The position numbers and the translations under genes were made by a program. The notes beneath the pieces are model-generated. The model was not told where the DNA came from and searched no databases. It worked only from the letters and a program-made list of their open reading frames with translations. Below, in pieces: positions 1,251 through 24,000 of a stretch of 24,000 nucleotides of DNA. The stretch is from Atopobiaceae bacterium. GTDB taxonomy: Bacteria > Actinomycetota > Coriobacteriia > Coriobacteriales > Atopobiaceae. The DNA lies in contig JAGAVX010000102.1 of the NCBI GenBank assembly GCA_017941705.1, forward strand, positions 7,286 through 31,285, written 5' to 3'. Every line of letters begins with the position of its first letter. The first letter of the stretch is position 1.

Positions 1251-1260
1251 GTAGGCTTTT

Positions 1261-5696: not shown

Positions 5697-5707
5697 GGGG
5701 TCTAACG

Positions 5708-6805: not shown

Positions 6806-6808
6806 GCC

Positions 6809-7930: not shown

Positions 7931-7937
7931 CAAGCGG

Positions 7938-7964: not shown

Positions 7965-8044
7965 TTTCATGTGTTGGGGACGTCCTCAACCACGATTGAC
8001 ATTTTGGTTCTTTCCGACCGATGGTCGAATCCACTCTGGCCCGC

Positions 8045-9573
<1,529 letters not shown>

Positions 9574-9620
9574 AGCTAGGCATATACCTGGTGCTGGCAG
9601 CTGACGGCATCGAACAGGCG

Positions 9621-9663
9621 AAGGGGCAGCCTCATCGCATACGCATGCGACGGGCTGCCCCTT
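9621..9663 (+). terminator. putative intrinsic terminator after the GH1 gene
   Basis: AAGGGGCAGCC (9621-9631) pairs with GGCTGCCCCTT (9653-9663). An inner stem TCGCAT/ATGCGA (9635-9650) sits inside the loop, and TCGTATG follows. Confidence 0.5.
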
Positions 9664-9708
9664 TCGTATGCCCACTTTGCTCGGCTACGTGCGCTCATGT
9701 AAAAACGC

Positions 9709-9714
9709 TATAGT
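9709..9714 (+). promoter_or_regulatory. candidate -10 element (TATAGT) for the DUF1295-like gene
   Basis: CGCTATAGTGTTTGATG lies ~28 nt upstream of ATG 9742. The same 13-mer CGCTATAGTGTTT recurs at 21504-21516, and TATAGTATTTGATG occurs at 22861-22874. All three sit just upstream of genes. Confidence 0.3.
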
Positions 9715-9741
9715 GTTTGATGTTTTGTCGATTACGGGAGC

Positions 9742-10563
9742 ATGCGTTTTGTGCAAGGTGGTGTTGGCATGGATTTGTTTCTGATGGCCTTTGTCGTTGC
9801 GCTGGTGTTCAGCAGCATCGGCTTCAAGAAGTACGTTTGGTTCATATCAATTGGCTATGGGTTCTCCGTCGCGGCTATTGGCATCGCGTTTCTGATCGCC
9901 GCACGGGCGTATCTTGAGCCTGCCACGATTGCCGCCTGCCTCCTCTTTGTGGTCTACGGCCTGCGCCTGGGTGGTTACCTGGCGATTCGCGAGCTCAAAA
10001 GCTCCAGCTACAACGCAAAGATGAAGACCGAGATCAAGTCTGGCACCGACATGTCGCTTGTGGCAAAGTGCGGCATTTGGGTATCGGCCGCCCTGCTCTA
10101 TGCGGCCGAGACGGCGCCCGTCGCCTTTCGCCTCTCCGCTCATGTGGGCACCGACGCGCTGCTAATCGTGGGGATGCTTGTGAGCGTGGCTGGGCTTGTG
10201 GTCGAATCGATGGCCGACGCCCAGAAGAACGATGCAAAGAAGGTCAACCCGCGGCGCTTTGTTGACACCGGGCTCTATCGCATCGTGCGCTGCCCCAACT
10301 ACTTTGGCGAAATGCTCTTTTGGACGGGGGTCTTTGTGGGCGGGCTTCCCGTGTACCACGGCGTGGGGCAGTGGCTTGTGGCCCTGCTGGGCTATGTCGG
10401 CATCATCTATGTCATGTTTGGCGGTGCGCGCAGGCTCGAGCTGCGTCAGGATCGAACCTACGGCGACGACCCTGCCTACCAGCGCTACGTGCGTACGACC
10501 CCCATCATGATCCCCCTCGTCCCGCTCTATAGCGTGAAGAAGTACGCATGGCTTGTGGCGTGA
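9742..10563 (+). CDS. DUF1295 / steroid-5-alpha-reductase-ICMT-like polytopic membrane protein
   Basis: Multi-TM protein with the family block GLYRIVRCPNYFGEMLFWTGVF (compare RHPNYFGE). The start could instead be ATG 9769 (MDLFLMAF...). Confidence 0.7.
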   Translation: MRFVQGGVGMDLFLMAFVVALVFSSIGFKKYVWFISIGYGFSVAAIGIAFLIAARAYLEPATIAACLLFVVYGLRLGGYLAIRELKSSSYNAKMKTEIKSGTDMSLVAKCGIWVSAALLYAAETAPVAFRLSAHVGTDALLIVGMLVSVAGLVVESMADAQKNDAKKVNPRRFVDTGLYRIVRCPNYFGEMLFWTGVFVGGLPVYHGVGQWLVALLGYVGIIYVMFGGARRLELRQDRTYGDDPAYQRYVRTTPIMIPLVPLYSVKKYAWLVA

Positions 10564-11043
10564 GGGAAGATCAAGGTCAGGCGTTCAATTGGCAGCTTGC
10601 CGTGGTCGACATGCTGCCGGTGGCGTTCTTTGGGCTGGCAACCTTTGTGCTGGGCGGTCGGCTGGGCAGCGCGTCCTTCTCCCTGGGGGGCGCTTCTCTG
10701 TCTTCTTGCGGGAGCGGGAAAGGTGCTGTGGAAGCTGCTCATTGCCCTGTGGGGAAGGGATGTGTCCGTCCTGGGGGCCCAGCTTCGCTTTCTCATGCCA
10801 GCGGGCTTTCTCCTGATGGCCATAGGTGCGGCGACGGCCGACCAAGAGGCGGCAAATCAACTGCTCGCTGCTGCGGCTCGGCCGCCTTCGGCGGTGTGCT
10901 TCGCGCTCACCCTTGTGGGCATGTGCGCCATGATCTTCTGTGCCAGGCGGTTTGACCGCTACGACGTAAGGGGCAACTGGATCGAGCAGGGCATCAACGC
11001 CGTCGCTCAGGGGTGCCTCTTGCTGGGGGTCCTGTTCCTGTAG
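10560..11043 (+). pseudogene. small (~160 aa if repaired) 4-TM membrane protein, apparently interrupted by a +1 frameshift at a G6 run (10685-10690)
   Basis: Up to ~10690 the frame of 10548/10560 reads membrane-like (NWQLAVVDMLPVAFFGLATFVLGGRLGSASFSLGG) with G/C-rich third positions. Over the same stretch the ORF-track frame (10597) reads W/R/C-rich junk (MPWSTCCRWRSLGWQPLCW). After the G run the 10597 frame becomes the plausible one (ALLCLLAGAGKVLWKLLIALW...GVLFL). GTG 10560 overlaps the upstream TGA (GTGA coupling). Confidence 0.5.
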
Positions 11044-11190
11044 CGCATGGGGCGGGATTGCGCGCTCTCGCCGGCGCGCGAGCTGCGCGTGCCCTCGTGG
11101 CGAGGCGCCTGGGCATGCGGCGCATTGTCATGTGCAGGGGAGTCATATCCCGTAGTACCATGAGAGACTAGCGTAAGGGAGGGAGCCGCT

Positions 11191-11961
11191 ATGAAAGTGC
11201 TGGAAGTCAAGGGCGTGCGTGTGGGCGAGGGGCGTCCCAAGACCATCGTCTCGCTGATGGAACGAGACGTGACGGGGCTGCTTGCCAAGGCCGATCAAGC
11301 GCAGTCCGCGCGCGCCGACTGCCTCGAGTGGCGAGCCGACCACTTTGCTCAGATGGATAGTCCAGAGGCGGTCGCGGGGGCCTGCCGCGAACTCATGAGC
11401 GTCTGTCCCAAGACGCCGCTTATCGCCACGCTGCGCACCAAGGGCCAAGGCGGAGAGGCCGAGCTGTCGGTCGAGCGCCACCTGTCCTTGCTGCGCGCGC
11501 TCATATGCGAAGGCCGCCCCGATCTTGTCGATATCGAGCTTGGCGTGGGCGACGATGAGGTGCGCGAGCTGGTGGCCTTGGCGCATGAGCACGGAAGCCA
11601 TGCGATTGTCTCGCACCACGACTTTGATGCGACGCCTTCCGAGGGGGAGATGGAGTCGCTGCTGCTACACATGGCAGAGCTAGGCGCCGACATCCCCAAG
11701 CTTGCCGTTATGGCACGTCGCTCCCAGGATGCCCATGCGCTCATGCGTGCGACGGCGCAGGCGCACGAGAAGGTCGACGTTCCGCTGATCACGATGGCCA
11801 TGGGCACGGCTGGCCAGACCACGAGGCTAACGGGCGAGGTCTTTGGCAGCGCCATGACATTCTGCGCGTTGGGAAGGGCGTCCGCGCCAGGGCAGGTGGA
11901 GTTGGAAAGCGCCCTCGTCACCCTCGGTGCGATCCATCGCGACCGCACGGCGGGGGAGTAG
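11191..11961 (+). CDS. aroD: type I 3-dehydroquinate dehydratase
   Basis: Collinear similarity to E. coli AroD as I recall it: KTIVSLM, LEWRADHF, ATLRTKGQGGE, VSHHDFDATP, IPKLAVMA (Schiff-base Lys block), ITMAMG and SAPGQ. The RBS is AAGGGAGGGA. Confidence 0.92.
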   Translation: MKVLEVKGVRVGEGRPKTIVSLMERDVTGLLAKADQAQSARADCLEWRADHFAQMDSPEAVAGACRELMSVCPKTPLIATLRTKGQGGEAELSVERHLSLLRALICEGRPDLVDIELGVGDDEVRELVALAHEHGSHAIVSHHDFDATPSEGEMESLLLHMAELGADIPKLAVMARRSQDAHALMRATAQAHEKVDVPLITMAMGTAGQTTRLTGEVFGSAMTFCALGRASAPGQVELESALVTLGAIHRDRTAGE

Positions 11962-12002: not shown

Positions 12003-12644
12003 ATGCAGCTCAACGCCATGATCGATCACACCAATCTCAAGCAGGATGCCCGTCGCGCCGACATCGAGCGCCTTTGTGACGAGGCCGTGCAGTATGGCTT
12101 TGCCACCGTGTGCGTCAATTCCTGCTGGGTTTCGCTGGCGGCCGCGCTTCTCGCCGAGACGAACATCGGCGTGACCACGGTGGTCGGTTTCCCGCTGGGT
12201 GCCGCCTCGACGCAGGCGAAGGTCGCCGAGACCATACAGGCAGTTGCCGACGGGGCCGACGAAATCGACATGGTGCTCAACGTCGGGCGCTGCAAGGACG
12301 GTGACGATGACTTCTGCACGGAGGACATCGCAGCCGTTGTCAAAGCCGCTGGTGATGCCACCGTCAAGGTCATCCTCGAGTGCTGCCTGCTGAACGACAA
12401 CGAGATCGTGCGTGCCTGCGAGGACTCGGTTGCAGCCGGTGCCGACTTCGTCAAGACGAGTACGGGCTTTTCGAAGGGCGGGGCGACAATCCATGACGTG
12501 GAGCTCATGCGCAAGACCGTGGGTGACCGCTGCAAGGTCAAGGCCGCTGGTGGCATGCACGCCCGCGCTGAGGCTGAGGCCATGGTCCAGGCCGGCGCCG
12601 ATCGCCTAGGCACCAGCGCCAGCATCGCCATTGTGGAGGGCTGA
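12003..12644 (+). CDS. deoC: deoxyribose-phosphate aldolase
   Basis: AGGAGGA RBS sits 3 nt before ATG 12003; the ORF-track start at 11973 lacks an RBS. Motifs: IDHTNLK, VCVN, VVGFPLGA, EIDMVLN, VKVILE, FVKTSTGF (Schiff-base Lys) and KAAGG. Confidence 0.9.
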   Translation: MQLNAMIDHTNLKQDARRADIERLCDEAVQYGFATVCVNSCWVSLAAALLAETNIGVTTVVGFPLGAASTQAKVAETIQAVADGADEIDMVLNVGRCKDGDDDFCTEDIAAVVKAAGDATVKVILECCLLNDNEIVRACEDSVAAGADFVKTSTGFSKGGATIHDVELMRKTVGDRCKVKAAGGMHARAEAEAMVQAGADRLGTSASIAIVEG

Positions 12645-12646
12645 GC

Positions 12647-13645
12647 ATGCCCGTGAGTTTTGCCGACCTCTATGGCCGCCTGATTGACCTGCACCTGCAT
12701 ATCGATGGCTCGATCAGCGTGCCTGCCGCGCGCAGGCTTGCCGAGCTTGACGGACGTCCCATCGACCTCACTGATGCCGAGGTATTCGACCGGCTCTCGG
12801 TGGGAGAGGAATGCGAGGACCTCAACGAGTATCTGGACAAGTTCTCGTTTCCGCTCTCGCTTGTGCAGACGAGCACGCAGATCGAGGAGAGCGTCTACCT
12901 GCTCCAGGAGGAGCTGCGCGAGCAAGGCTACGCATATGCCGAGCTTCGTTTTGCGCCGCAATCCCAATGTGCCCGTGGGCTGACGCAGCGGGAGGTGATC
13001 GAGGCATCGCTGGCGGGGCTTAGCCGTTCGAGCTTCGAGGCACGTCTCATCCTTTGCTGCATGCGCGGGGACGACACGCTTGCGGCAAACCTCGAGACAG
13101 TCGAGCTGGCCGCAGAGTATCTCGGCAACGAGATCGTGGCGATTGACCTTGCCGGCGCGGAGGCGCTCTTCCCTACGAGCGACTATGCGCCGGTCTTTGC
13201 GCGGGCCCGCGAGCTGGGCGTCCCCTTTACCATTCACGCCGGCGAGGCAGGTGGTCCCAAGAGCGTGCGAGCGGCGCTCGATATGGGCGCCACGCGCATT
13301 GGCCACGGCGTGCGGGCAGTCGAGGACTCCAGCCTGGTCGCGGAGCTCGCCGAGCGAAGGATGCCTCTGGAAGTCTGCTTTACCTCCGAGGTCCAGACGG
13401 GTGCCCTGGAGTCATATCGTCATGCGGGATCATTGCGCCAGCTTCTGGATGCAGGTTGCATGGTGACCATCAACAGCGACAACTGCTCCGTCTCGAACAC
13501 GTGGGCCGCACGCGAGCTGGTAATCGTGTCGGAGGCGCTAGGCCTCACGCAGGCAGAGGTTGACCAGCTGCTGCTCAATGCGGTTGAGGCGTCCTTTGCC
13601 GACGAGGCGACCAAGCATCGCTTGCGCGAGATTGTGGTGCGCTAA
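12647..13645 (+). CDS. add: adenosine deaminase
   Basis: ATG lies 2 nt after the deoC stop. Metal and catalytic blocks present: DLHLHIDGS, YAELRFAPQ, IDLAGAE, FTIHAGE, RIGHG and VTINSDN. Confidence 0.9.
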   Translation: MPVSFADLYGRLIDLHLHIDGSISVPAARRLAELDGRPIDLTDAEVFDRLSVGEECEDLNEYLDKFSFPLSLVQTSTQIEESVYLLQEELREQGYAYAELRFAPQSQCARGLTQREVIEASLAGLSRSSFEARLILCCMRGDDTLAANLETVELAAEYLGNEIVAIDLAGAEALFPTSDYAPVFARARELGVPFTIHAGEAGGPKSVRAALDMGATRIGHGVRAVEDSSLVAELAERRMPLEVCFTSEVQTGALESYRHAGSLRQLLDAGCMVTINSDNCSVSNTWAARELVIVSEALGLTQAEVDQLLLNAVEASFADEATKHRLREIVVR

Positions 13646-13652
13646 GAGAGCG

Positions 13653-14513
13653 CTAACGCAACTCCACTGTGCCAAATCCCGCCTTGCACGCGAGGGCTTC
13701 GAGCTCGACCATGCGCTCGTCAGTCGGCGATTCGGCGTCAGCCAGCTCTCCCACTACGCCAAACCTGCGGAACCTGATGAGTTTGAGCTTGGTCGACGCA
13801 ATCTTGCTGCCCAGTGTCGAGGCAATGCCGGCAATGGTCTCCTCGGGGTCGTTCCATCCGGGCACGACCACGATGCGCAGCTCCTCGATCTTGTCGTGTT
13901 CGGCAAGGAGGGCAAGGTTGCGCTTGACCACGCTTGCGTCACCGTTCGTGAGCCGCTTGAACACGTCAGTGTCCCATGCCTTGATGTCGAGCATCACGCC
14001 GTCGGCCACCTCGAGCAGGTCCTCGTGCTCCCAGAACGGCACGCATCCGTTACTGTCTATCAACGTTCCGAGGCCGGCCCCGCGGCAGAGGCTGAACAGC
14101 TCGCGCATCCAATCTGGGTGCAGCATGCACTCGCCTCCCGAGACGGTGATGCCACGGATGAACGGCTGGTACGAGTGCACGACCTCGAATACCTCGCTCG
14201 GCGTGAGCCGCTCGATCTTGGGGCTGGCCTTGTGAGGGCACACATGAATGCAGGTGTCGCACTGCACGCAGGCGTCTTTGTTCCACATCACCTGTTTGCC
14301 CTGCTTGTGCAGCGCGCCAGCCGGACACTGCTCGACGCACAGCCCGCACGCAACGCACAGGTTCTGCGTCTCGGGGTTGTGGCAGTACTTGCAGGCGATG
14401 TTGCACCCCTGCAGAAAGATGGAGCATCGCGATCCCGGACCATCGACTAGCGAAAACGGTATGACCTTATTCACGGGTGCGGTAAGACTATCAGCCAAGG
14501 CCATCATGAACAC
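13653..14513 (-). CDS. yjjW: glycyl-radical enzyme activating protein (radical SAM, YjjW type, 286 aa)
   Basis: VDGPGSRCSIFLQGCNIACKYCHNPE carries the CX3CX2C radical-SAM cluster. Two ferredoxin-like motifs follow: CVACGLCVEQCP and CVQCDTCIHVCP. It lies directly downstream of the glycyl-radical enzyme. The start is GTG 14513 or ATG 14507/14504. Confidence 0.8.
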   Translation of the reverse strand: MFMMALADSLTAPVNKVIPFSLVDGPGSRCSIFLQGCNIACKYCHNPETQNLCVACGLCVEQCPAGALHKQGKQVMWNKDACVQCDTCIHVCPHKASPKIERLTPSEVFEVVHSYQPFIRGITVSGGECMLHPDWMRELFSLCRGAGLGTLIDSNGCVPFWEHEDLLEVADGVMLDIKAWDTDVFKRLTNGDASVVKRNLALLAEHDKIEELRIVVVPGWNDPEETIAGIASTLGSKIASTKLKLIRFRRFGVVGELADAESPTDERMVELEALACKAGFGTVELR

Positions 14514-14560
14514 TCTTTCATGTTAATTGATGTTCCCCGCCGCGATGGCGAGGACAAAGA

Positions 14561-14705
14561 AAGGGGATGCAAGCGTGCCTTCCCCTTGGAGCTTGGGGTG
14601 ATACGAAAGCCCGACCTTCATGCTTCCGGCGACCTCTGAGCCGCTTGGTCTATCAGCTCTTCTTGACGAGTCAGGCGAAGCGTGAGCCGGAAGCATGAAG
14701 GTCGG
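14561..14705 (-). promoter_or_regulatory. structured intercistronic region between yjjI and yjjW: a long-range 20-bp stem plus a terminator-like hairpin
   Basis: Perfect inverted repeat CCGACCTTCATGCTTCCGGC (14611-14630) pairs with GCCGGAAGCATGAAGGTCGG (14686-14705), with a 55-nt spacer. A second hairpin AAGGGGA (14561-14567) pairs with TCCCCTT (14581-14587). On the minus strand the second hairpin is followed by TCTTTGT. Confidence 0.5.
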
Positions 14706-14718
14706 ACATAGGTTTGTG

Positions 14719-16233
14719 TTATCCCAGACGCACCTTTCGATCGGCCAGGTCGTTGGCGCGCCAGTTGCCCTCGCCATCGTGGCTGGTGTCGGCCAGCACT
14801 GCCTCGCCGCGTGCGAACTTCTCCATCTCGGAGCGCTTGACGAGGAAGCCCGTAATGCGCACGAGGTCGGAATCGCTGGGATAGAACGAGAGGTACTTGT
14901 CGTCCACGGCGAACGCGCCCTTGACCACATCGAGCAGGGCATCCACGTTCTGGGCAGCCGTGGGCTCGACGGGGAAGATGTCGCTCACGCCAGCGGTGAA
15001 GAAGCGGTGCATGCGCGCGCAGTGGCGAATGTGGTCAAAGAAGACCTCGGGTTCGGAGCCGACGCGGATGCGCACGCCGGGGGTCGAGGAAGTCTGGTCA
15101 CCAAAGCCGGCCTGGGCATGCATCATGTATTTGCCGCCACCAGCCTCGGAGTACGGCGCGTCCCAAGCCTGAACCTGAGCGGTCATCTTGGTCATGATCT
15201 CGTCGGCAAGGTCGTTCGCCTCGGGGTCGCTGCCATAGACATGGTCGGGTCCGAGCAGCTTCTCGATGCACTCGTGCATGCCGATCATGCCGAACATGCC
15301 CACAAAGCGCTCGCGTTCGATGAGGCCTTCCTTCACGAGGAACGAGGTCTGGAAGAAGTTGGAGTCCTCGACGAGGAACTTGATGCGTGCGTCCATGTAT
15401 TCGAGCAGTGCGCCGGTCGCGTTGGGGAGCAGCTCGTTCATGAAGTGGTCCACGCTGGTGGCAAGGTCAGCGAGCTGGCTGAGCTTGACGCGGTCGAGGC
15501 AGTAGGCGCCGCCACGCACGGGCAGCACGTTGTAGCAGCTGACGACGGTGTAGGCGTCCTTGGGGCCGTCCTGGGCCAGCGGATAGATGTCACGCAGCAT
15601 GCGGTCGTTGGCATATGCGGGATTGGCGCAGGCCATGGAGGTCTGCAGGGCCAGGCGAGCGAAGTCGTCAGGCGTCACCTCGGGGTCATACTTGAGCGTG
15701 AAGTTTGGCACGGCGTTTTGGACCTCGGCGTCTGCCTTGAGGAGCAGGCGACCGGCGCGCGTGTCCTCGGGACCAAGGTTTGCGTGGCAGTAGCCGCTGG
15801 CCACGGTGCGATCGATGTAGTTGAGGAAGCGCTTGAAGCGAGGGAGGATCTCCTCGTCGGAGAGACCGTCCAGGAACGGGTCGAAGACGCGGTCGAGCTG
15901 GCCGACGTAGACCGGGCGACCGGTGACGGAGGGGACGTTCTGGTACAGGATCTGCAGGTTCATGAGCAGGTCGTCGAGGTTGTCCGGTGCGTCGAGGCGC
16001 AGGAAGTCGCTGCCTTGGCGAGCGAAGCGCTCCATGTCGCAGCAGATGTAGCGTGGACGGTACGGGGCATTGCCCTCATGCATGTCGCAGATGGCGTCAC
16101 GCTCAAAGAACCAGTCGAACTCAGGAGTCGTGGGAATGGGGTGCTCGCAGTTCTCAGCCGCCTGGGCCAGGTGAATCAGCTTCTGGCCATAGGTGAGGTT
16201 GCCTGCCGTGATGATGTCCATGAACTCGCTCAT
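14719..16233 (-). CDS. yjjI: YjjI-family (DUF3029) short glycyl-radical enzyme, 504 aa, substrate unknown
   Basis: ATG 16233 has a GGAGG RBS 5 nt upstream; the ORF-track extension to 16386 runs through a palindrome and is rejected. The C-terminal glycyl-radical-type motif is DLVRITGFLV (Gly codon 14848-14850, 42 aa from the C-terminus). The ~500-aa size and the adjacent YjjW-type activase match the E. coli yjjI/yjjW pair. Confidence 0.7.
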   Translation of the reverse strand: MSEFMDIITAGNLTYGQKLIHLAQAAENCEHPIPTTPEFDWFFERDAICDMHEGNAPYRPRYICCDMERFARQGSDFLRLDAPDNLDDLLMNLQILYQNVPSVTGRPVYVGQLDRVFDPFLDGLSDEEILPRFKRFLNYIDRTVASGYCHANLGPEDTRAGRLLLKADAEVQNAVPNFTLKYDPEVTPDDFARLALQTSMACANPAYANDRMLRDIYPLAQDGPKDAYTVVSCYNVLPVRGGAYCLDRVKLSQLADLATSVDHFMNELLPNATGALLEYMDARIKFLVEDSNFFQTSFLVKEGLIERERFVGMFGMIGMHECIEKLLGPDHVYGSDPEANDLADEIMTKMTAQVQAWDAPYSEAGGGKYMMHAQAGFGDQTSSTPGVRIRVGSEPEVFFDHIRHCARMHRFFTAGVSDIFPVEPTAAQNVDALLDVVKGAFAVDDKYLSFYPSDSDLVRITGFLVKRSEMEKFARGEAVLADTSHDGEGNWRANDLADRKVRLG

Positions 16234-16270
16234 GTGCGCCTCCGCGTGCGATGTGTCGTTAGTTGCCGTA

Positions 16271-16276
16271 ATGATA
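16271..16276 (-). promoter_or_regulatory. candidate -10 element (TATCAT on the minus strand) for yjjI-yjjW
   Basis: The minus strand reads GCGCGCGTTATCATTACGG about 38 nt upstream of ATG 16233 and downstream of the 37-bp hairpin. A similar CGTATCAT lies upstream of psuK (19472-19477). Pattern match only. Confidence 0.25.
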
Positions 16277-16330
16277 ACGCGCGCGCGAGCTGTCGCATGG
16301 GTGGGTAGAGAAGAAGCACAAGAAGCTGTG

Positions 16331-16413
16331 CGGCACGCCTGCTCCCCGGGAAGAGCTGTGCCATGGGACATGTTGCCCCATGGCACAGCTCTTCCCGGGG
16401 AGCAGGCGTGCCG
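16331..16413 (-). terminator. perfect 37-bp inverted repeat (83-nt hairpin) between the DUF1963 gene and yjjI; probable, unusually long, terminator
   Basis: CGGCACGCCTGCTCCCCGGGAAGAGCTGTGCCATGGG (16331-16367) is the exact reverse complement of 16377-16413, with a 9-nt loop ACATGTTGC. It starts 15 nt after the DUF1963 stop. On the minus strand a pyrimidine/U-rich stretch follows (CACAGCTTCTTGTGCTTCTTCTCT). Confidence 0.6.
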
Positions 16414-16428
16414 CTGGATGAATTGCTC

Positions 16429-17337
16429 CTAGTAGCAGTCCCAGTTGAAGAGCACGCGCGAGAAGTCGCCGCGGCTCAGCGCCTCTCCGTTGATGAAGAA
16501 GCCGCCGATGCCAACGTCTCCCCAGAGGATGCGATCCTTCTTGGTGTCAGGGTCACCTTCCGAGTCAACCTGCAGCAGGAGCGTGTCAAACTCGTCGGCA
16601 AGCTCGCCGTAGCGTGGGTCCGATTGGGTGAAGAACGGGTGCCCAAACACAAAGTGCGCGGGTTCGGGGGTCTTGAGCTCATCAAAGAGCAGCGACACGC
16701 CGTCGTTGTCGAGCAGGTCCCAGTAGCTGTCGCGTCCGGCCACAAAGTCGTCGCCCATGATCTCGCGGCAGCATGCGACGAACAGCTCGTCGATGCGTCC
16801 GTCGGCCGTGTTCATGGTGCTGGTGGTAGGCTCGATGCGCAACGCGAACTCCCCTGCGAGCACGTTGCCCAAATAGTCCTCGTCAAAGCCCATGAGCGAG
16901 GTGGGCATGCCAATCGCCTCGACCTGCTCGGGTGTGACTGCCGGGTCGACCACCTTGTGCCATATCACGCGGAAGCCGTTCTGCCGCGTGGAGTCGTCAA
17001 AGTCCATGCCCGAGCAGTCGTCCTCAGCATCGATGAAGAACTGCAGCAGCCCCTTGCCGGGAAGCCGCTCGTCATCGCCAAAGTCCGCGAGGTTCAGCTG
17101 GGCGAGCAGCATGAGCTTCTGCCCTTTGGGAGTTGCGGGATAGCCCAAATCTGCCGGCCAGTAGGGGAGGCCGCCAAACTTGGTGTCGGTGAGGCCCGGC
17201 TTGCGGCCAGCCTCGATTCTCAGCCGGTAAGCCGGCATGCTCGTGCGCTTGCGGATGGCCTCGGCAATCACTGGCACCTTGTCAGTCGGGACGAGCGGAA
17301 GTGCGGGAACCTGTGCCTTTTGCTCTTCCTGTGTCAT
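16429..17337 (-). CDS. DUF1963 / YwqG-family protein (302 aa), function unknown
   Basis: Family blocks present: TKFGGLPYWP, LLAQLNLADF, GLLQFFI, GHPFFTQSDP, LLLQVDSE and ILWGDVGIGGFFI. The RBS GGAGAGGTGA precedes ATG 17337, which lies 37 nt downstream of the psuG stop. Confidence 0.8.
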   Translation of the reverse strand: MTQEEQKAQVPALPLVPTDKVPVIAEAIRKRTSMPAYRLRIEAGRKPGLTDTKFGGLPYWPADLGYPATPKGQKLMLLAQLNLADFGDDERLPGKGLLQFFIDAEDDCSGMDFDDSTRQNGFRVIWHKVVDPAVTPEQVEAIGMPTSLMGFDEDYLGNVLAGEFALRIEPTTSTMNTADGRIDELFVACCREIMGDDFVAGRDSYWDLLDNDGVSLLFDELKTPEPAHFVFGHPFFTQSDPRYGELADEFDTLLLQVDSEGDPDTKKDRILWGDVGIGGFFINGEALSRGDFSRVLFNWDCY

Positions 17338-17374
17338 GCGCTCACCTCTCCTCTGTGGCCTTTTATGTCGCTTG

Positions 17375-18310
<936 letters not shown>

Positions 18311-18380
18311 GAGTTGCTCCTTTCGATGACAACCACATGGTAGAAAAGTTGCGGTCGTGCAGATGCGCCGTGATCGGAAA

Positions 18381-19325
18381 CTACAGGCTATCGTCGTATG
18401 ATCTGAGCGTTGACATGCGTTCGAGCAAATGACGCTCGCTCATGGCGGCACTCACGGTTCGGTCGCTCTCCACGGCGATGGCCGACGCGGCCAGGCCGGC
18501 AAGGCCGCTCTGCCGGAGGTCAAGGTCATGCAGGTGCGCCCAGATGAGACCTGCCATCATGGCGTCCCCGCCACCTGTGGTGTCGACGACGCGACAGGGG
18601 AGTAGGGGGAGCCTGCATGACTCGCTTTGCTCCGCGCAGTGGAGGCCGTCTGCCCCAAGAGAGATGAAGACGCGTTCGAGCCCTGAGGAGACGAGTGTCT
18701 GCGCGGCACGGTCGAGGGAGCTTCCGTCGTGGATTCTCTCCCCGCTGAGTGCCTCGGCCTCGAGCAGGTTCGGCTTGAGCGTATGAAGTGATCCAAGCAG
18801 GCCGCCGAGCTTCCTTGCCTTCACGGTCGAGATGGGGTCGCAGAAGATGGGGGCGCATACGTTGCGGGCCACCCATTCCAGCGTGGCAGCGGGGACGTTG
18901 GTGTCCACGAGCACGAGAGACGCTCCGTTAACCAGGTCTTTGCGCGCTTCCAGCCTCTCGCCAGTCAGTTCGTCGAGGATGGCCATGTCGTTGATGGCGA
19001 CCTGCATCTCCCCGTGGCTGTCGGTGACGTAGAGGTACGTGGACGTTGCGTGTCCCGGCACGGTAAAGGAGTGCGCGATGCCGATGCCTGCCTCGGTGCA
19101 TCCCTCGACGAGGCTGTCCGCCAGCGCGTCGCTGCCAAAGGTGGTGATGAGCTCGACGTCGATTCCCAGCAGTGCGAGGTTGTGGGCGATGTTGCGTGCC
19201 ACTCCGCCGTGCGAGAGTCGGATGGAGCCGAGGTTGGAGTCCCTGGCGACAAGCGGTCCGTTGGGTCTTCCGGCTATGTCCACGTTCGCTCCGCCTATGG
19301 CCACGACATATGGCCTGTCACGCAT
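18381..19325 (-). CDS. psuK: PfkB-family kinase, pseudouridine kinase type (314 aa)
   Basis: ATG 19325 is preceded by GGAGG. The N-terminus YVVAIGGANVDIAG resembles E. coli YeiC, and DTTGGGDAMMAG is the PfkB signature. It lies directly upstream of psuG. The 779-aa ORF-track entry is this gene fused to antisense read-through of deoB. Confidence 0.8.
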   Translation of the reverse strand: MRDRPYVVAIGGANVDIAGRPNGPLVARDSNLGSIRLSHGGVARNIAHNLALLGIDVELITTFGSDALADSLVEGCTEAGIGIAHSFTVPGHATSTYLYVTDSHGEMQVAINDMAILDELTGERLEARKDLVNGASLVLVDTNVPAATLEWVARNVCAPIFCDPISTVKARKLGGLLGSLHTLKPNLLEAEALSGERIHDGSSLDRAAQTLVSSGLERVFISLGADGLHCAEQSESCRLPLLPCRVVDTTGGGDAMMAGLIWAHLHDLDLRQSGLAGLAASAIAVESDRTVSAAMSERHLLERMSTLRSYDDSL

Positions 19326-19362
19326 GAAAACCTCCTTCGGATCAACACCGCCGTGCGAGGAA

Positions 19363-19460
19363 GCCTGTCCCCGATGCACGCCCGTGTGCATTGGTGCCTG
19401 TCCCCGATGCACGCCCGTGTGCATTGGTGCCTGTCTCCAATGCACGGGGGTCGTTTGGGT
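19363..19460. repeat. 33-bp tandem direct repeat (2 perfect copies plus 1 degenerate), each carrying the palindrome ATGCAC-N6-GTGCAT, in the psuK/deoB divergent intergenic region
   Basis: GCCTGTCCCCGATGCACGCCCGTGTGCATTGGT occurs at 19363-19395 and identically at 19396-19428. A third copy at 19429-19460 matches 16 of its first 18 nt and then diverges. GTGCATTGG (19419-19427) can also pair with CCAATGCAC (19437-19445). Confidence 0.9.
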
Positions 19461-19471
19461 TACTGAAAAGA

Positions 19472-19477
19472 ATGATA
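19472..19477 (-). promoter_or_regulatory. candidate -10 element (TATCAT on the minus strand) for psuK-psuG-DUF1963
   Basis: The minus strand reads CTGTCGTATCATTCTTTTC. This placement would put the tandem repeats in a ~140-nt leader or operator zone. Pattern match only. Confidence 0.25.
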
Positions 19478-19504
19478 CGACAGGCAATCGAGACTGTCCT
19501 CGCG

Positions 19505-19510
19505 TATTAT
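19505..19510 (+). promoter_or_regulatory. candidate -10 element (TATTAT) for deoB-deoD
   Basis: CGCGTATTATGTATG lies ~38 nt upstream of ATG 19548, with a GAGGG RBS. Pattern match only. Confidence 0.25.
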
Positions 19511-19547
19511 GTATGCGAATGCTTGAGTTGCGTGGAAACGAGGGCCT

Positions 19548-20738
19548 ATGAGTAAGCGCGTTTTTGTCATCGTGCTGGACAGCTTTGGCATCGGCGAGGC
19601 TGCCGACGCGGCCGCCTGGGGAGACGAGGGTTCCAACACCCTCTGCGCCTGCGCCACCAGCTCCTACTTCTCTATCCCCAACCTCACCCGGCTCGGACTC
19701 TGCAACATCCACGGGGCACTCGAGTCGGTCTACGCCCACAGCCTGGCGCCCATCGATGCGCCGACCGGCGCCTTCGCGCGCCTTACAGAGGCCAGCCAGG
19801 GCAAGGACAGCACGGTGGGTCACTGGGAGATGGCCGGCGTCATCTCGCCCAAGCCGTTCCCGACCTACCCTCAGGGCTTCCCCGACGAGGTCATCAGGCC
19901 GTTCGAGGAGGCTACGGGTCGCAAGGTCATCTGCAACCTTCCGTACTCGGGCACGAAGGTCATCAAGGACTACGGCCGCGAGATGGTCGAGACCGGCGCG
20001 CTCATCGTCTACACCTCCGCCGACAGCGTCTTTCAGATCGCGGCACACGAGGACGTCGTCCCGGTCGAGCAGCTCTACGAGTATTGCCACATCGCGCGCG
20101 AGCAGCTTCAGGGCGAGCATGGGGTCGGGCGCGTGATCGCACGGCCGTTCAAGGGCGAATGGCCCTACAAGCGCACGAGGCGCCGCCATGACTACTCGCT
20201 CGAGCCGACTGGCACCACGATGCTCGACGTGCTCAAGTCGGAGGGACGCGACGTTCTGGGCGTGGGCAAGATCTATGATCTCTTTGCCGGTCGCGGGACG
20301 ACCGATCACGTGCTGACCGCCAACAACCCGGACGGCATCGACAAGACCATCGCATGGATGGATCGCGACTTTGACGGCCTCTGCTACACCAATTTGGTCG
20401 ACACCGACATGATCTATGGCCATCGCAACGACGTGGATGGCTATGCCAAGGCAATCTCGTACTTTGACGAGATGCTGCCCACAATGCTCGACAAGCTTCG
20501 CGAGGACGACCTCCTCATGATTACAGCGGACCACGGCTGCGACCCCGTGACGCCCTCGACCGACCACAGCCGCGAGGACGTCCCTTGGCTCGTGGCGGGA
20601 CCGCGTGTGCGCGCCGGTGTCGACTTGGGAGTCCTTCCGACCTTTGCCGACCTCTCGGCGACGGTGCTCGACTACCTTGGAGCGTCCGCGTTGGACACCG
20701 GTACCAGCAGGCTTTCGCAAATCATCGCCGAGGGATAG
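19548..20738 (+). CDS. deoB: phosphopentomutase
   Basis: N-terminus RVFVIVLDSFGIGEAADAAAWGDEGSNTL. Also GKDSTVGHWEMAG, VYTSADSVFQIAAHE, DLFAGRG, TNLVDTDMIYGHRND and ITADHGCDP. Length is 396 aa. Confidence 0.92.
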   Translation: MSKRVFVIVLDSFGIGEAADAAAWGDEGSNTLCACATSSYFSIPNLTRLGLCNIHGALESVYAHSLAPIDAPTGAFARLTEASQGKDSTVGHWEMAGVISPKPFPTYPQGFPDEVIRPFEEATGRKVICNLPYSGTKVIKDYGREMVETGALIVYTSADSVFQIAAHEDVVPVEQLYEYCHIAREQLQGEHGVGRVIARPFKGEWPYKRTRRRHDYSLEPTGTTMLDVLKSEGRDVLGVGKIYDLFAGRGTTDHVLTANNPDGIDKTIAWMDRDFDGLCYTNLVDTDMIYGHRNDVDGYAKAISYFDEMLPTMLDKLREDDLLMITADHGCDPVTPSTDHSREDVPWLVAGPRVRAGVDLGVLPTFADLSATVLDYLGASALDTGTSRLSQIIAEG

Positions 20739-20785
20739 GAATCTCCCTCAGCTGCTTCATACAACCACTTCGAAAGGACTGACGC

Positions 20786-21502
20786 ATGCCCACTCCAACT
20801 CCTCACAACAATGCAGAGCTCGGCGATATCGCAAAGGTCGTGCTCATGCCAGGAGACCCCCTGCGCGCCAAGGTCGTAGCCGACACCTATCTCGAGGACG
20901 TGACCTGCTTCAATGAGGTCCGCAACATGCTGGGATTCACTGGCTACTACCAGGGGCATCGCGTCTCGGTCATGGGCAGCGGCATGGGTATGCCCTCCAT
21001 CGGCATCTACTCGTACGAGCTCTACCACTTCTATGGCGTGAACGCCATCATCCGCATTGGCAGCGCCGGCGGCATCAACAAGAACGTCCAGGTGAGGGAC
21101 ATCGTCTTTGGACAGGGTGCCTGCACCGACTCCAACTTTGCCTACCAGTATGGCCTGCCGGGAACCATTGCCCCCATCGCCGACTTCGGTCTGCTGCGCC
21201 GTGCCGTCGAGGCTGCCGAGCGCCGCGGCGCGCGCTACCACGTGGGCAACCTGCTCTCCACTGACATCTTCTACAACGCCTACAACTACATCAAGGAGTG
21301 GGACGAGATGGGAGTCCTCGCGACCGAGATGGAGGCGGCCGCGCTCTACCTCAATGCCGCGAAGGCCGGCAAGAAGGCCCTCGGCATCATGACCGTCTCC
21401 GATCATCTGGTCACCGGAAAGCAGCTTTCTGCCGAACTGCGACAAAACTCCTTCACTGAGATGATGGAAATCGCTCTTGAGGTGGCGGTATCCGAGGCGT
21501 AA
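20786..21502 (+). CDS. deoD: purine nucleoside phosphorylase, DeoD (hexameric) type
   Basis: Close collinearity with E. coli DeoD as I recall it: TPHNNAELGDIAKVVLMPGDPLRAKVVADTYLEDV, VRNMLGFTGYYQG, SVMGSGMGMPS, IIRIGSAGG and TEMEAAALY. Length is 238 aa. Confidence 0.92.
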   Translation: MPTPTPHNNAELGDIAKVVLMPGDPLRAKVVADTYLEDVTCFNEVRNMLGFTGYYQGHRVSVMGSGMGMPSIGIYSYELYHFYGVNAIIRIGSAGGINKNVQVRDIVFGQGACTDSNFAYQYGLPGTIAPIADFGLLRRAVEAAERRGARYHVGNLLSTDIFYNAYNYIKEWDEMGVLATEMEAAALYLNAAKAGKKALGIMTVSDHLVTGKQLSAELRQNSFTEMMEIALEVAVSEA

Positions 21503-21630: not shown

Positions 21631-22701
21631 ATGTTCGATGCCAAGATGACTCGTCGTACCTTTGCCGCCACCATGGGTGCCGGCGCTCTTGCTGCCCTCG
21701 CTGGCTGCGGTGGCGGCGGTGGGGCTGCTGAAGAGGGCGGCGACGCTGCCGAGGGCAACGTCAAGCTCGAGATGGTCACCGATACCGGTGGCGTCAACGA
21801 CCAGTCGTTCAACCAGCTCGCCTGGGCAGGCATGCAGCAGCTCAACGCTGACAACGGCTGGGAGGTCAGCTACATCGAGTCCAAGCAGGATTCCGACTAC
21901 ATGACCAACCTCGATAAGGCCGTCGACGATGGCGCCAGCCTCGTGTGGGGCATCGGCTTTGCCATGGCAGAGGCTGTCAACACCGCTGCCGACCAGAACC
22001 CCGACATCAAGTTCGCGCTCATCGACGGCACCAACGACAACGGCGCCGAGAACCTGACGGGCGTTCTGTTCAAGGCCCAGGAGCCTTCCTTCGCCGTGGG
22101 TTACATTGCTGCCCGCATGAGCGAGTCCGGCAAGATCGGCTTCGTCGGCGGCATGAGCTCCGAGACCATCCAGCAGTTCGAGTACGGCTTCTACGCTGGC
22201 ATCGAGTACGCCAACAAGGAGCAGAGCAAGTCCTGCACCTATCAGGGCCAGTACGCCGAGTCCTTCGGTGATGCCGCCAAGGGCAAGTCCATCGCCCAGA
22301 AAATGATCAAGGACGGCTGCGACGTCCTCTACCACGCCGCTGGTGGCACGGGCGTCGGCATGCTCGAGGCCTGCAACGACGCTGGCGTCTGGAGCATCGG
22401 CGTCGACCAGGACCAGGCTGTCCTGTTCCCCGACTACAAGACCATCATCACCTCCGCTCTCAAGAAGGTTGACGAGGCCGTCATCAACGTCTCCAACGGC
22501 ATCATCGACGGCTCCATCGCCGGTGGCGAAAACATCATCCTCGGTGCTGCCGAGGATGCCATTGGCATCGCCCCCACGCATGACAACCTGCCCGACGAGG
22601 TCTACAACGACGCCCTCGAGGTCATCGAGAAGATCAAGGCCGGTGACATCGTGGTTCCCTCCACCGAGGCCGAGCTCAAGGATTACATCGCTTCCCTCTA
22701 A
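21631..22701 (+). CDS. BMP-family (PnrA/TmpC/Med-like) nucleoside-binding ABC transporter lipoprotein
   Basis: ATG 21631 follows an AAAGGGAGAG RBS. The signal MFDAKMTRRTFAATMGAGALAALAGC carries a Tat-like TRRTF and the lipobox LAGC (Cys codon 21706-21708). BMP blocks present: TDTGGVNDQSFNQLAWAGM, FALIDG, IGFVGGM and VWSIGVDQDQ. Confidence 0.85.
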   Translation: MFDAKMTRRTFAATMGAGALAALAGCGGGGGAAEEGGDAAEGNVKLEMVTDTGGVNDQSFNQLAWAGMQQLNADNGWEVSYIESKQDSDYMTNLDKAVDDGASLVWGIGFAMAEAVNTAADQNPDIKFALIDGTNDNGAENLTGVLFKAQEPSFAVGYIAARMSESGKIGFVGGMSSETIQQFEYGFYAGIEYANKEQSKSCTYQGQYAESFGDAAKGKSIAQKMIKDGCDVLYHAAGGTGVGMLEACNDAGVWSIGVDQDQAVLFPDYKTIITSALKKVDEAVINVSNGIIDGSIAGGENIILGAAEDAIGIAPTHDNLPDEVYNDALEVIEKIKAGDIVVPSTEAELKDYIASL

Positions 22702-22724: not shown

Positions 22725-22756
22725 AAGGAGCGTCCCTTTGGGGCGCTCCTTTTTTA
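22725..22756 (+). terminator. intrinsic terminator after the binding-protein gene
   Basis: AGGAGCG-T-CCC (22726-22736) pairs with GGG-CGCTCCT (22741-22750) around the loop TTTG. A run of T residues follows (22750-22755). Confidence 0.75.
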
Positions 22757-22900: not shown

Positions 22901-24000
22901 GTGGAAGCAAGTCCCGAGTATGCGGTGCAGATGCATGGCATCCTGAAGACTTTTGGTGCCTTCACAGCCCTCGACCACGTGGATCTAGACGTCAAGAAGC
23001 AGACGGTCCACGCTATTCTGGGCGAGAACGGTGCCGGCAAGACCACGCTCATGAACATCCTCTATGGCCTCTACCAGGCTGACGAGGGCGACATCTTCAT
23101 GGGTGGCGAGAAGGTAAACATCACAAGTCCGACCGACGCGATCAAGCATGGCATCGGCATGGTCCACCAGCACTTCATGCTGGTCGAGAACTTCACCGTG
23201 ACCGAGAACATCATCCTCGGCGACGAGGTGTGCGGTGCCGCGGGCGTGCTCGATATGGGCCGCGCTCGCAAAGAGGTCATGGAACTGGTCGACGAGTACG
23301 GCTTTGACGTGGACCCAGACGCCAAGATCGAGGACATCACCGTTGGCATGCAGCAGCGCGTCGAGATCCTTAAGGCACTCTATCGTGGCGCCGAGGTACT
23401 GATTCTGGACGAGCCGACGGCTGTCCTGACGCCGCAGGAGATTGACAAGCTCATCGAGATCATGCATGACCTGATTGCCAAGGGCAAGACGATCATCATC
23501 ATCACCCACAAGCTGCGCGAGATCATGCAGTCCGCCGACGAGTGCTCCATCATCCGCCGTGGCGTCTACATGGGTACGGTCAACGTCAAGGAGTCCAACG
23601 AGACCGAGCTTGCCTCCAAGATGGTCGGCCGCAACGTCAACCTGACCGTGGAGAAGACTCCCGCTCATCCTGGCGAGACGGTGCTCTCGATTCGCGACCT
23701 GACCGTCAAGGACGATCGCGGCATCGAGCAGGTGCGCGGCCTCAACCTCGACATCCGCGCGGGCGAGATCGTGGGCATCGCCGGCATCGACGGCAACGGT
23801 CAGCAGGAGCTGGTCGACGCCATCACAAATATCGTCAAGGCAGAGTCGGGCAGCATCAAGATCAATGGCCAGGAGATCGTCAACACCACACCCCGCACGA
23901 CCTTCCTCAACAAGATCGCGACCATCCCCTCTGACCGCCATCGCTGGGGTCTGGTGCTCCCCTTTGCCGTGAGCGAGAACTCGGTGCTCGAGCGTCATAC
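22901..24000 (+). CDS. nucleoside/sugar ABC transporter ATP-binding protein with duplicated ATPase domains (BMP-system type), 3'-truncated by the window edge
   Basis: Not in the ORF track because it has no stop before the window end. GTG 22901 follows an AAAGGGAGG RBS. My translation reads VEASPEYAVQMHGILKTFGAFTALDHVDLDVKKQTVHAILGENGAGKTTLMNILYG (Walker A), LSVGMQQRVEILKAL-type signature region, ILDEPTAVL (Walker B) and IIITHKL. The second domain starts LSIRDLTVKDDRG...GIAGIDGNGQQEL, and the frame is open to 24000 (...IPSDRHRWGLVLPFAVSENSVLERH). Confidence 0.85.
   Translation, partial: MEASPEYAVQMHGILKTFGAFTALDHVDLDVKKQTVHAILGENGAGKTTLMNILYGLYQADEGDIFMGGEKVNITSPTDAIKHGIGMVHQHFMLVENFTVTENIILGDEVCGAAGVLDMGRARKEVMELVDEYGFDVDPDAKIEDITVGMQQRVEILKALYRGAEVLILDEPTAVLTPQEIDKLIEIMHDLIAKGKTIIIITHKLREIMQSADECSIIRRGVYMGTVNVKESNETELASKMVGRNVNLTVEKTPAHPGETVLSIRDLTVKDDRGIEQVRGLNLDIRAGEIVGIAGIDGNGQQELVDAITNIVKAESGSIKINGQEIVNTTPRTTFLNKIATIPSDRHRWGLVLPFAVSENSVLERH

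Follow-up and report, generated by a model that had tools for sequence, protein, structure and literature searches.

A YjjI-family glycyl radical enzyme and its activase are very probably coupled to nucleoside utilisation in several bacterial lineages

Introduction

What does a putative radical enzyme do among genes for nucleoside breakdown? The question is raised by a 24,000-nucleotide stretch of DNA from an Atopobiaceae bacterium (GenBank assembly GCA_017941705.1, contig JAGAVX010000102.1, positions 7,286 to 31,285 of the forward strand; this whole stretch is called the window below). Here yjjI, predicted to encode a glycyl radical enzyme, and yjjW, encoding its radical S-adenosylmethionine (SAM) activase, stand among genes for the uptake and degradation of nucleosides. 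To our knowledge, YjjI is the last glycyl radical enzyme of Escherichia coli without a function. The initial annotation of the window had noted that yjjW (b4379) and yjjI (b4380) of E. coli K-12 adjoin deoC-deoA-deoB-deoD (b4381-b4384), which is correct (the two sets are transcribed divergently), and had argued from this adjacency for a functional coupling of YjjI to the breakdown of nucleosides, pentoses or nucleobases. Neighbour enrichment in multiple lineages and the replacement of parts around the pair support this argument, and we consider YjjI-YjjW to be very probably coupled to nucleoside utilisation.

Nucleoside genes as neighbours of yjjI-yjjW

YjjI loci (167 in total, with up to 10 kb on each side) were taken from Coriobacteriia, several Bacillota classes, Enterobacterales, a Pasteurellaceae-like lineage, Spirochaetota, Elusimicrobiota and Bacteroidota; single loci are cited below by L numbers. 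Among the matches listed, the genome set comprised 80 species-representative loci (39 from Coriobacteriia and 41 others, mostly from several classes of Bacillota, plus Spirochaetota, Elusimicrobiota and Bacteroidota) and the metagenome set 80 contigs, for which a divergent family member served as reference to spread the sampling. Five further loci came from Enterobacterales and relatives. Vibrionales, among other orders, are not represented among the matches listed. All open reading frames (ORFs) were clustered all-against-all with antisense shadow ORFs removed, and the clusters were ranked by the number of YjjI groups containing them (68 groups at 80% identity). Pfam and NCBIfam names were given to the families only after ranking.

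YjjW was found in 64 of the 68 groups (in the window its gene lies immediately downstream of yjjI). It was followed by the BMP-system ATPase (31 groups), the permease (26), the BMP binding protein (25), DeoD (22), a Crp-family regulator (19), DeoB (14), a PfkB kinase (13), DeoC (11), Cdd (9), PsuG and a YitT-family membrane protein (8 each) and Add (7). Regulators and generic ABC ATPases apart, no nucleoside-unrelated family reached a comparable rank among the 68 groups. The enrichment therefore extends beyond the two lineages from which the coupling had first been proposed, with nucleoside genes as the top neighbours of YjjI after YjjW.

A conservative count used one representative locus per group with at least 6 kb of flank, and left nucleoside hydrolase, ribokinase and ECF genes uncounted. 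It found a nucleoside transporter or enzyme as follows:

Groups at 80% identity: within 10 kb in 32 of 62; in the same co-directional run in 19 of 62
Groups at 70% identity: within 10 kb in 16 of 31; in the same co-directional run in 10 of 31
Groups at 60% identity: within 10 kb in 5 of 12; in the same co-directional run in 5 of 12

We estimate the chance rate at 5-10%, on the basis of about a dozen nucleoside loci in the 4.6 Mb of E. coli rather than of a measured background; at a rate of 10%, the binomial probability was 2e-16 for the 80% groups, 7e-9 for the 70% groups and 4e-3 for the 60% groups.

Gene arrangements and interchangeable parts

Nucleoside genes surround YjjI in at least 15 gene arrangements across at least five phyla. 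Examples are given below (perm, permease; ABC, transporter ATPase):

Atopobiaceae: perm-perm-ABC-BMP-DeoD-DeoB divergent from PsuK-PsuG-(Crp)-YjjI-YjjW, then convergent DeoC and an iron alcohol dehydrogenase
Lachnospiraceae: YjjI-YjjW-BMP-ABC-perm-perm-Crp-DeoD-DeoD-Cdd
Tissierellia: Crp-YjjI-YjjW-BMP-ABC-perm-perm-Cdd
Oscillospiraceae and one spirochaete: DeoD divergent from YitT-BMP-ABC-perm-perm-GntR-YjjI-YjjW
An Elusimicrobiota genome: PsuG-YjjI-YjjW-BMP-ABC-perm-perm
L148: Udp-BMP-YjjI-YjjW-ABC-perm-perm-DeoC-Add-DeoB-PunA

At ten metagenome loci, yjjI-yjjW lies between the gene for the transporter binding protein and that for the ATPase. The gaps in L148 are at most about 100 bp, and its four downstream enzymes, Udp, YjjI and YjjW all score above the curated NCBIfam cut-offs.

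The transporters that alternate beside the pair are mutually unrelated: BMP-ABC (the commonest), NupC, NupG and possibly ECF. A NupC/CNT transporter gene lies 69-70 bp upstream of yjjI in L084, NupC adjoins yjjW in Edwardsiella, and the Pasteurellaceae-like lineage has a YjjI-YjjW-NupC-DeoD unit. In Neobacillus a NupG-type proton symporter (PF03825, E = 4e-161) is encoded directly downstream of Crp-YjjI-YjjW. ECF transporter components, whose nucleoside role is only putative, occur with DeoD in Caproiciproducens-like genomes (L038-L043).

Three routes to ribose 5-phosphate alternate in the same manner: phosphorylase plus DeoB, nucleoside hydrolase plus ribokinase, and PsuK plus PsuG. The inosine-uridine nucleoside hydrolase (PF01156, E = 9e-93) and ribokinase replace phosphorylase and DeoB in L114, L119, L123 and L124; the ribokinase (334-356 bits, above the TIGR02152 cut-off) is encoded about 210 bp upstream of yjjI in L124 and L135. 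At least four of the gene orders, from Coriobacteriia, Bacillota and Elusimicrobiota, have PsuK/PsuG genes beside yjjI. DeoC belongs to the cluster or adjoins it in Enterobacterales, Atopobiaceae and L040, L067, L070, L125-L128, L146-L149 and L157. The iron alcohol dehydrogenase family was found near YjjI in 17 of the 39 Coriobacteriia loci of the genome set, and its gene sits just past deoC in Atopobium-type loci. Since unrelated transporters and enzyme routes replace each other around a constant YjjI-YjjW core, we infer that core and surroundings share a pathway.

The YjjI protein

The YjjI family is compact. A full scan of 1.84 billion representative proteins gave 75 matches at E < 1e-30, about 20 of which are full-length clusters at 50% identity. 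Residues were compared in an alignment of 65 sequences, 36-85% identical to the window protein. The window YjjI has the glycyl motif R459-I-T461-G462-F, in which R459, T461 and G462 are invariant (65/65), and the finger loop S232-C233-Y-N235, in which S232, C233 and N235 are invariant. The other invariant polar residues are E53, R61, Y62, D114, D141, R142, H150, N152, N209, R248, R283, H372, Q374, R388, E394, H401, H409 and D418. Of the 65 sequences, 63 have a second cysteine, C202; it and C233 are the only conserved cysteines.

An AlphaFold2 model built from this alignment (predicted local distance difference test score, pLDDT, 92.4; predicted template modelling score, pTM, 0.91) shows a two-times-five-strand barrel with C233 and G462 at hairpin tips, C233 lying between strands 228-232 and 235-238. 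All of the top fold matches are glycyl radical enzymes. In a Foldseek search of the PDB, class III ribonucleotide reductases (RNRs) came first (E = 6e-17 to 1e-12, template modelling (TM) score 0.6-0.77, 11-14% identity), headed by Prevotella copri NrdD (8p2s, E = 6e-17, TM 0.77) and then the T4 (1h7b), S. thermophilus and T. maritima enzymes. PflD, YbiW (8id0, 8yjo, 8id7), hydroxyproline dehydratases, propanediol dehydratase and PFL followed. The predicted glycyl loop and the finger-loop cysteine in a modelled 10-stranded barrel fit the glycyl radical enzyme superfamily, and no PF02901 (PFL-like) or PF01228 (Gly_radical) match was found on the window YjjI. By sequence no solved YjjI relative can be found, since the family profile gave only a marginal match to P. 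copri NrdD (E = 0.036) among the PDB sequences.

Despite this nearest fold, the sequence features indicate that YjjI is not an RNR. The NRDD family (PF13597) matches YjjI only partially, at 24.9 bits and thus below the threshold of 26.2, and neither an ATP-cone nor the C-terminal four-cysteine zinc ribbon was found among the Pfam domains of YjjI. YjjW scores far below the cut-offs of the NrdG models; it matches the PFLE_PFLC and HypD-activase types and carries a Fer4 insert. In an hhalign alignment to a single NrdD sequence (6% probability, hence of low confidence), the equivalents of NrdD residues C175 and M382 are not conserved. Here C233 pairs with the thiyl cysteine (C384) of E. coli NrdD, and the C175 position falls on YjjI residue 64, which is Met in 29 sequences, Leu in 24 and Cys in 11. 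The window YjjI itself has a Cys-Cys pair at residues 64-65 (about 16039-16044), at this C175-aligned site of low confidence. C202 could play the role of the reduction cysteine from a different position.

Proposed function and rival explanations

Gene identities, conserved linkage, predicted fold and the conserved glycine and cysteine sites are the ground from which we infer substrate class and reaction. We lean towards the sugar part rather than the base as the substrate of YjjI, because all three alternating routes end at ribose 5-phosphate. An evenly balanced proposal is that YjjI-YjjW forms the oxygen-sensitive radical step of a pathway for ribonucleoside scavenging and catabolism and acts on the ribosyl unit. 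More tentatively, and by analogy, YjjI may carry out a 2-deoxygenation that feeds DeoC. It is likewise conceivable, with the same reserve, that YjjI is a stripped-down relative of the anaerobic RNR which removes the 2-hydroxyl from a non-nucleotide ribosyl substrate. The caution of the initial annotation that the substrate cannot be deduced from sequence still holds.

The proposed pathway would run as follows. Nucleosides would be imported by the BMP/PnrA-type ABC transporter in the window, and by NupC, NupG or possibly ECF systems elsewhere. Add and Cdd would deaminate the bases, which would be removed by the phosphorylases DeoD, PunA, Udp or DeoA, by nucleoside hydrolase, or by PsuK and PsuG; DeoB or ribokinase would bring the sugar to the 5-phosphate level. 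YjjW would put a radical on Gly462 of YjjI, the radical would move to Cys233 at the tip of the finger loop, and the thiyl would abstract a hydrogen from the substrate, a ribose moiety in the form of ribose 5-phosphate, ribose 1-phosphate or the nucleoside itself. By analogy of fold, RNR-like chemistry might follow, in which abstraction of the 3-hydrogen leads to loss of the 2-hydroxyl and a 2-deoxypentose derivative would result. This could form by reduction, possibly aided by C202 and formate or a thiol, or else as a 3-keto-2-deoxy compound, to be reduced or cleaved later. DeoB and DeoC would convert it to glyceraldehyde 3-phosphate and acetaldehyde, the latter to be removed by the alcohol dehydrogenase encoded beyond deoC in Atopobium-type loci. 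If formate is the reductant, our own stoichiometry gives a redox-balanced conversion of ribose 1-phosphate to ethanol, acetate and CO2.

Several observations weigh against this reading. About half of the groups have no nucleoside gene near yjjI, and the chance rate of 5-10% was only estimated. Within Enterobacterales, the deo adjacency is present in Escherichia and Edwardsiella and absent from Morganellaceae: Proteus (L082) keeps homologues (by Pfam family) of smp, serB and radA in an E. coli-like flank without deo genes, and Providencia (L086) has no nucleoside gene near yjjI. The Bacteroidota loci L080 and L081 carry an OPT transporter or a C69 peptidase instead, and one clostridial type lies in a ruvAB-queA-tgt neighbourhood. 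Many of the tight operons contain a transporter only, or a transporter and a phosphorylase, without DeoB or DeoC. In the protein, the C175-aligned position has no conserved cysteine, and two residues before C233 there is V, S or A and not the Met of NrdD (M382), both in the 6%-probability hhalign alignment. The C-x-E motif of glycyl radical eliminases and isomerases (PMC13450708) is also absent from YjjI, which has C233-Y-N235 in its place with N235 invariant. By our stoichiometry, a little more ATP is gained from the pentose phosphate route than from the deoxy route, whose benefit would be simplicity or an electron sink, not yield.

An unlikely alternative is that YjjI acts on the released nucleobase, for instance by reducing or cleaving the ring of uracil, hypoxanthine or xanthine anaerobically. 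Phosphorylases, hydrolases and PsuG, like Add and Cdd, make or modify free bases. The known uracil (Rut) and purine oxidation routes of E. coli are oxygen-dependent or have special requirements. An anaerobic replacement of them would fit FNR control of yjjI (PMC3688515). However, the partner enzymes free different bases (DeoD and PunA purines, Udp and PsuG uracil, DeoA thymine), and the pentose phosphate is the sole product that they have in common. The ribokinase beside yjjI has no role in base metabolism, the nearest fold belongs to an enzyme that acts on ribose, and no ring-opening amidohydrolase or dihydropyrimidinase-type family was found among the conserved neighbours.

The NrdD-like fold also suits a second proposal, namely that YjjI is a minimal reductase working at the level of ribonucleosides or ribose phosphates and making deoxyribosyl compounds for DNA synthesis out of imported ribonucleosides. 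The two conserved cysteines equal in number those of formate-dependent NrdD, and there are minimal operons in which the pair is accompanied by a nucleoside importer alone (L084, L092, L069, L098). We hold such a salvage role to be improbable: the recurrent partners DeoC, Add, Cdd and alcohol dehydrogenase are catabolic, the ATP-cone or specificity-site apparatus expected of an enzyme for DNA precursors is absent, and the reduction residues of NrdD are unconserved in the low-confidence alignment. In addition, E. coli without all three RNRs requires deoxynucleosides (PMC10121223), although an oxygen-sensitive YjjI was probably not probed in that work, since anaerobic growth is barely mentioned there.

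There is similarly little probability that YjjI handles modified nucleosides from RNA turnover that are refractory to ordinary phosphorylases, for example by removing a 2'-O-methyl group or converting another modified ribose through radical elimination. The recurrence of PsuK/PsuG suggests that the clusters scavenge RNA-derived nucleosides including modified ones, and the loss of a 2'-substituent after abstraction of the 3'-hydrogen is exactly an RNR-type step. However, no genes that handle demethylation, methanol or formaldehyde are among the conserved neighbours, and E. coli, Edwardsiella and many Bacillota loci have only general nucleoside genes. The least likely explanation, an adjacency without functional meaning that arose from inherited synteny, shared anaerobic regulation or chance, would accommodate the lineages without association, the deo-less Proteus flank and the estimated background, but is highly improbable given the number of gene orders and phyla, the insertion of yjjI-yjjW within transporter operons, the swapping of unrelated transporters and ribose 5-phosphate routes, the top rank of nucleoside genes and the binomial probability of 2e-16 for the 80% groups even at a 10% rate.

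If YjjI does act on the ribosyl unit and feeds DeoC, it would provide an anaerobic shortcut from RNA-derived ribose to deoxyribose 5-phosphate that bypasses the pentose phosphate pathway, and this would explain why E. coli keeps yjjIW beside deoCABD. A deoxygenation of this kind would be a new reaction class beside RNR, and it would give gut and rumen bacteria a new anaerobic way to use RNA-derived ribose. The candidate substrates are narrowed to ribonucleosides, ribose 1-phosphate, ribose 5-phosphate, their deoxy forms and perhaps modified nucleosides. While the gene family and its superfamily were already known, we did not find the multi-lineage embedding in nucleoside operons or this substrate shortlist in the literature. 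With such clear genetic contexts, the function of this long-standing orphan enzyme is now directly testable.

Gene content of the window

The window has a G+C content of about 60%. Gene calls were made by hidden Markov model searches of its ORFs against Pfam and NCBIfam with curated bit cut-offs, and the genes named in the initial annotation were all found, essentially where it had placed them and in the given orientations. The features are:

12003-12644, plus strand: deoC, deoxyribose-phosphate aldolase (TIGR00126, 259 bits, cut-off 117)
12647-13645, plus: add, adenosine deaminase (TIGR01430, 249 bits, cut-off 217; PF00962, E = 6e-68)
13653-14513, minus: yjjW, radical-SAM activase (TIGR04041, 361.5 bits, cut-off 250.2; PF04055 and Fer4 families)
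14514-14718, minus: yjjI-yjjW spacer of 205 bp, with a perfect 20-nt inverted repeat (14611-14630 and 14686-14705)
14719-16233, minus: yjjI, YjjI-family glycyl radical enzyme of 504 amino acids (TIGR04040, 579.6 bits, cut-off 498.3)
16234-16428, minus: region upstream of yjjI, with a palindrome, then a conserved TATCAT-like box, a GGAGG ribosome-binding site and the ATG
16429-17337, minus: DUF1963 (YwqG-like) gene (PF09234, E = 2e-53; PDB 1pv5, YwqG, E = 2e-32)
17375-18310, minus: psuG, pseudouridine-5'-phosphate glycosidase family (PF04227, E = 3e-136)
18381-19325, minus: PfkB-family kinase (PF00294, E = 9e-44)
19363-19446, no strand: 33-bp tandem repeat, 2.5 copies with 96% matches, in the divergent psuK/deoB control region
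19548-20738, plus: deoB, phosphopentomutase (NF003766, 490 bits, cut-off 256)
20786-21502, plus: deoD, purine nucleoside phosphorylase (NF004489, 341 bits, cut-off 230; TIGR00107, 297 bits, cut-off 232)
about 21632-22701, plus: BMP/PnrA-like substrate-binding lipoprotein of a nucleoside ABC transporter (PF02608, E = 2e-73)
22901-24000, plus, running off the window end: ABC transporter ATPase with two ATP-binding domains (PF00005, E = 2e-40, two stretches)

DeoC, DeoB, DeoD and Add are all equivalog-level assignments above curated cut-offs. The ATG of deoC at 12003 is preceded by an AGGAGGA ribosome-binding site, and add and yjjW converge with a gap of 7 bp. YjjW carries a ferredoxin-like two-cluster insert at residues 50-96 approximately. 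The window YjjI covers positions 1-485 of the 485 of PF11230 (651.7 bits, E = 7e-196). Its start was placed at 16233 because the homologues have 504 amino acids, a GGAGG site precedes this ATG, and the DNA of five related loci is conserved from exactly this codon onwards. Among the matches listed, the nearest YjjI proteins (92-94% identity) belong to rumen metagenome-assembled genomes (MAGs) labelled Coriobacteriaceae/Atopobiaceae, in keeping with the high-GC Gram-positive anaerobe proposed as the host.

The PfkB-family kinase is plausibly psuK: its best NCBIfam match is the pseudouridine kinase PRK09850, at 218 bits and below the cut-off of 540. A helix-turn-helix (HTH) domain like that of the Atopobium homologues was sought in the upstream in-frame translation of this gene and rejected. 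The BMP protein, with an ORF open from 21553 and a likely ATG at 21632, has as its closest solved chains Borrelia BmpA and BmpD and T. pallidum TmpC (PnrA), which we take to be nucleoside binders. The ATPase clusters with the BMP-system ATPases of 69 loci.

Elsewhere in the window, positions 18-11961 hold cell-envelope and miscellaneous genes unrelated to nucleosides, among them an MBOAT acyltransferase, an alpha/beta hydrolase, an 821-residue protein ending in an NlpC/P60 endolysin-like domain, an ABC-2 exporter pair together with a family-2 glycosyltransferase, a GH1 glycosidase and a DUF1295 protein. A type I 3-dehydroquinase gene is immediately 5' of deoC.

Control regions and transcription units

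Between the DUF1963 stop codon and the yjjI start lies a near-perfect palindrome (16330-16414, 41-nt arms, 3-nt loop), followed by a small T-rich hairpin and the conserved -10-like (TATCAT-like) box. Because of the palindrome and this box, yjjI-yjjW is probably a transcription unit of its own and not the tail of a psuK-psuG-DUF1963 unit. The initial annotation had placed the pair directly downstream of psuK-psuG-DUF1963 on the same strand; position and strand stand, while the three genes and the pair are probably transcribed apart and DUF1963 is no conserved partner. It was rejected as a pathway member, being found in only 4 of the 167 loci, namely the window and its close relatives L004, L008 and L035. 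A terminator is one possible identity for the palindrome, a small mobile or repeat element another; in related MAGs (L002, L004, L035) the corresponding stretch varies and is visibly rich in repeats.

The spacer between yjjI and yjjW resembles an insertion, judging by its length: it spans 1-72 bp in the closest relatives, and most loci have 0-20 bp or an overlap. The loop of its inverted repeat is 55 nt. Such a long spacer might uncouple or regulate expression of the activase. Each of the first two copies of the 33-bp tandem repeat contains the exact palindrome ATGCAC-N6-GTGCAT. In the window this motif is found nowhere outside the psuK/deoB intergenic region, with no copy near yjjI or deoC; the array looks like a candidate set of operator sites for some regulator. 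A terminator-like hairpin (22725-22751) lies 3' of the BMP gene. Near-matches to the FNR/CRP-like site TTGAT-N4-ATCAA are in modest excess in the window as a whole (10 found, 5.1 expected; a count of 10 was reached in 3 of 100 shuffles). Upstream of the yjjI start there is none, and the closest one (16211-16224, 2 mismatches) falls inside the coding sequence. An Rfam scan of the window gave no match, so no known riboswitch is present in it.

The DUF1963 gene of the window occupies the slot that most other Atopobiaceae and many Bacillota use for a Crp-family regulator directly upstream of yjjI; the window has no such regulator. The Crp/Fnr-family regulator (cNMP-binding domain and HTH_Crp_2) is encoded at L010:9243-9980 and in 53 other loci and is the commonest non-transport neighbour; in the genome set, 98% of its genes share the strand of yjjI, and their median distance from yjjI is 149 bp. 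In the L010 protein the N-terminal cysteine cluster of FNR is missing, and it is for this reason more likely to sense a small ligand than oxygen. A regulator of another kind is found at L119:8393-10297, a 634-residue fusion of a LacI-type repressor (HTH and periplasmic-binding-like domain) with a PfkB kinase, convergent with yjjW and near a nucleoside-hydrolase-like gene, a ribokinase and a sugar-binding protein.

Two further groups of loci have features of their own. The Pasteurellaceae-like metagenome lineage is marked by RNase T2-pgk-fba-heptosyltransferase synteny; the YjjI-YjjW-NupC-DeoD unit belongs to a sublineage (L094, L099, L101-L103, L106, L107, L113, L122), and in L095-L097 and L100 a convergent recQ comes directly after a full-length YjjI, with YjjW, NupC and DeoD not nearby. 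In these four loci, either the activase is encoded elsewhere or the system is decaying. The Atopobium-type loci (L009-L042) contain, beyond deoC and the iron alcohol dehydrogenase, two families without a Pfam match (c36 and c19, the latter in tandem pairs; examples of such families are L030:13341-14369 and L009:18083-19147) and, further on, a transketolase-like fragment (c55, judged by eye).

Comparison with known systems

YjjI and YjjW of E. coli are the founding members of TIGR04040/PF11230, and the window YjjI is 38% identical to the E. coli protein over its full length. Both have the glycyl motif, the finger-loop cysteine, the second cysteine, an adjacent YjjW and a deo neighbourhood. Gene order and orientation differ; the window also has psuG, a PfkB kinase gene, add and genes of a BMP ABC transporter, but no deoA. 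In our literature search, no paper assigning a function to YjjI was found, and neither YjjI nor nucleosides are mentioned in a superfamily review of June 2026 (PMC13450708). FNR binds upstream of yjjI and activates it in enterobacteria (PMC3688515), and in Yersinia intermedia anaerobiosis raises yjjI 4.3-fold and yjjW 2.1-fold (PMC3792023). Gly465 of E. coli YjjI was labelled by a radical probe in living cells (bioRxiv 10.64898/2026.08.13.742689). A bicluster study of 2011 proposed a role in 'nitrogen metabolism' from co-expression with nar genes and noted an NrdD-like structure prediction (PMC3228777); we read this co-expression as shared FNR/NarP control and not as a pathway assignment.

Class III RNR (NrdD) resembles YjjI in having the closest fold to its model (TM 0.69-0.77), in the glycyl radical and finger-loop thiyl cysteine, and in the link to ribosyl compounds. 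It differs in sequence (12-14% identity), and YjjI has no ATP-cone or zinc ribbon and, in the low-confidence alignment, no conserved equivalents of C175 and M382. The activases differ as well, YjjW being of the PflC/CutD type with an extra ferredoxin domain and not an NrdG.

The functions of YbiW and PflD, the next-best fold matches, were reportedly solved in 2024. These E. coli glycyl radical enzymes are C-O lyases (isomerases) of 1,5-anhydrohexitol 6-phosphates, and their product is cleaved by a neighbouring aldolase (PMC13450708). The logic of a sugar-phosphate lyase followed by an aldolase parallels that proposed for YjjI and DeoC, although YbiW and PflD are PFL-like proteins of 770-810 residues with a C-x-E motif, while YjjI has 504 residues and C-Y-N.

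With the classical nucleoside operons (E. coli deoCABD and the BMP/PnrA importers), the window shares equivalog-level deoC, deoB, deoD and add and a PnrA-like transporter. As described, those operons contain no radical enzyme, whereas yjjI-yjjW is embedded in operons of this kind in several lineages.

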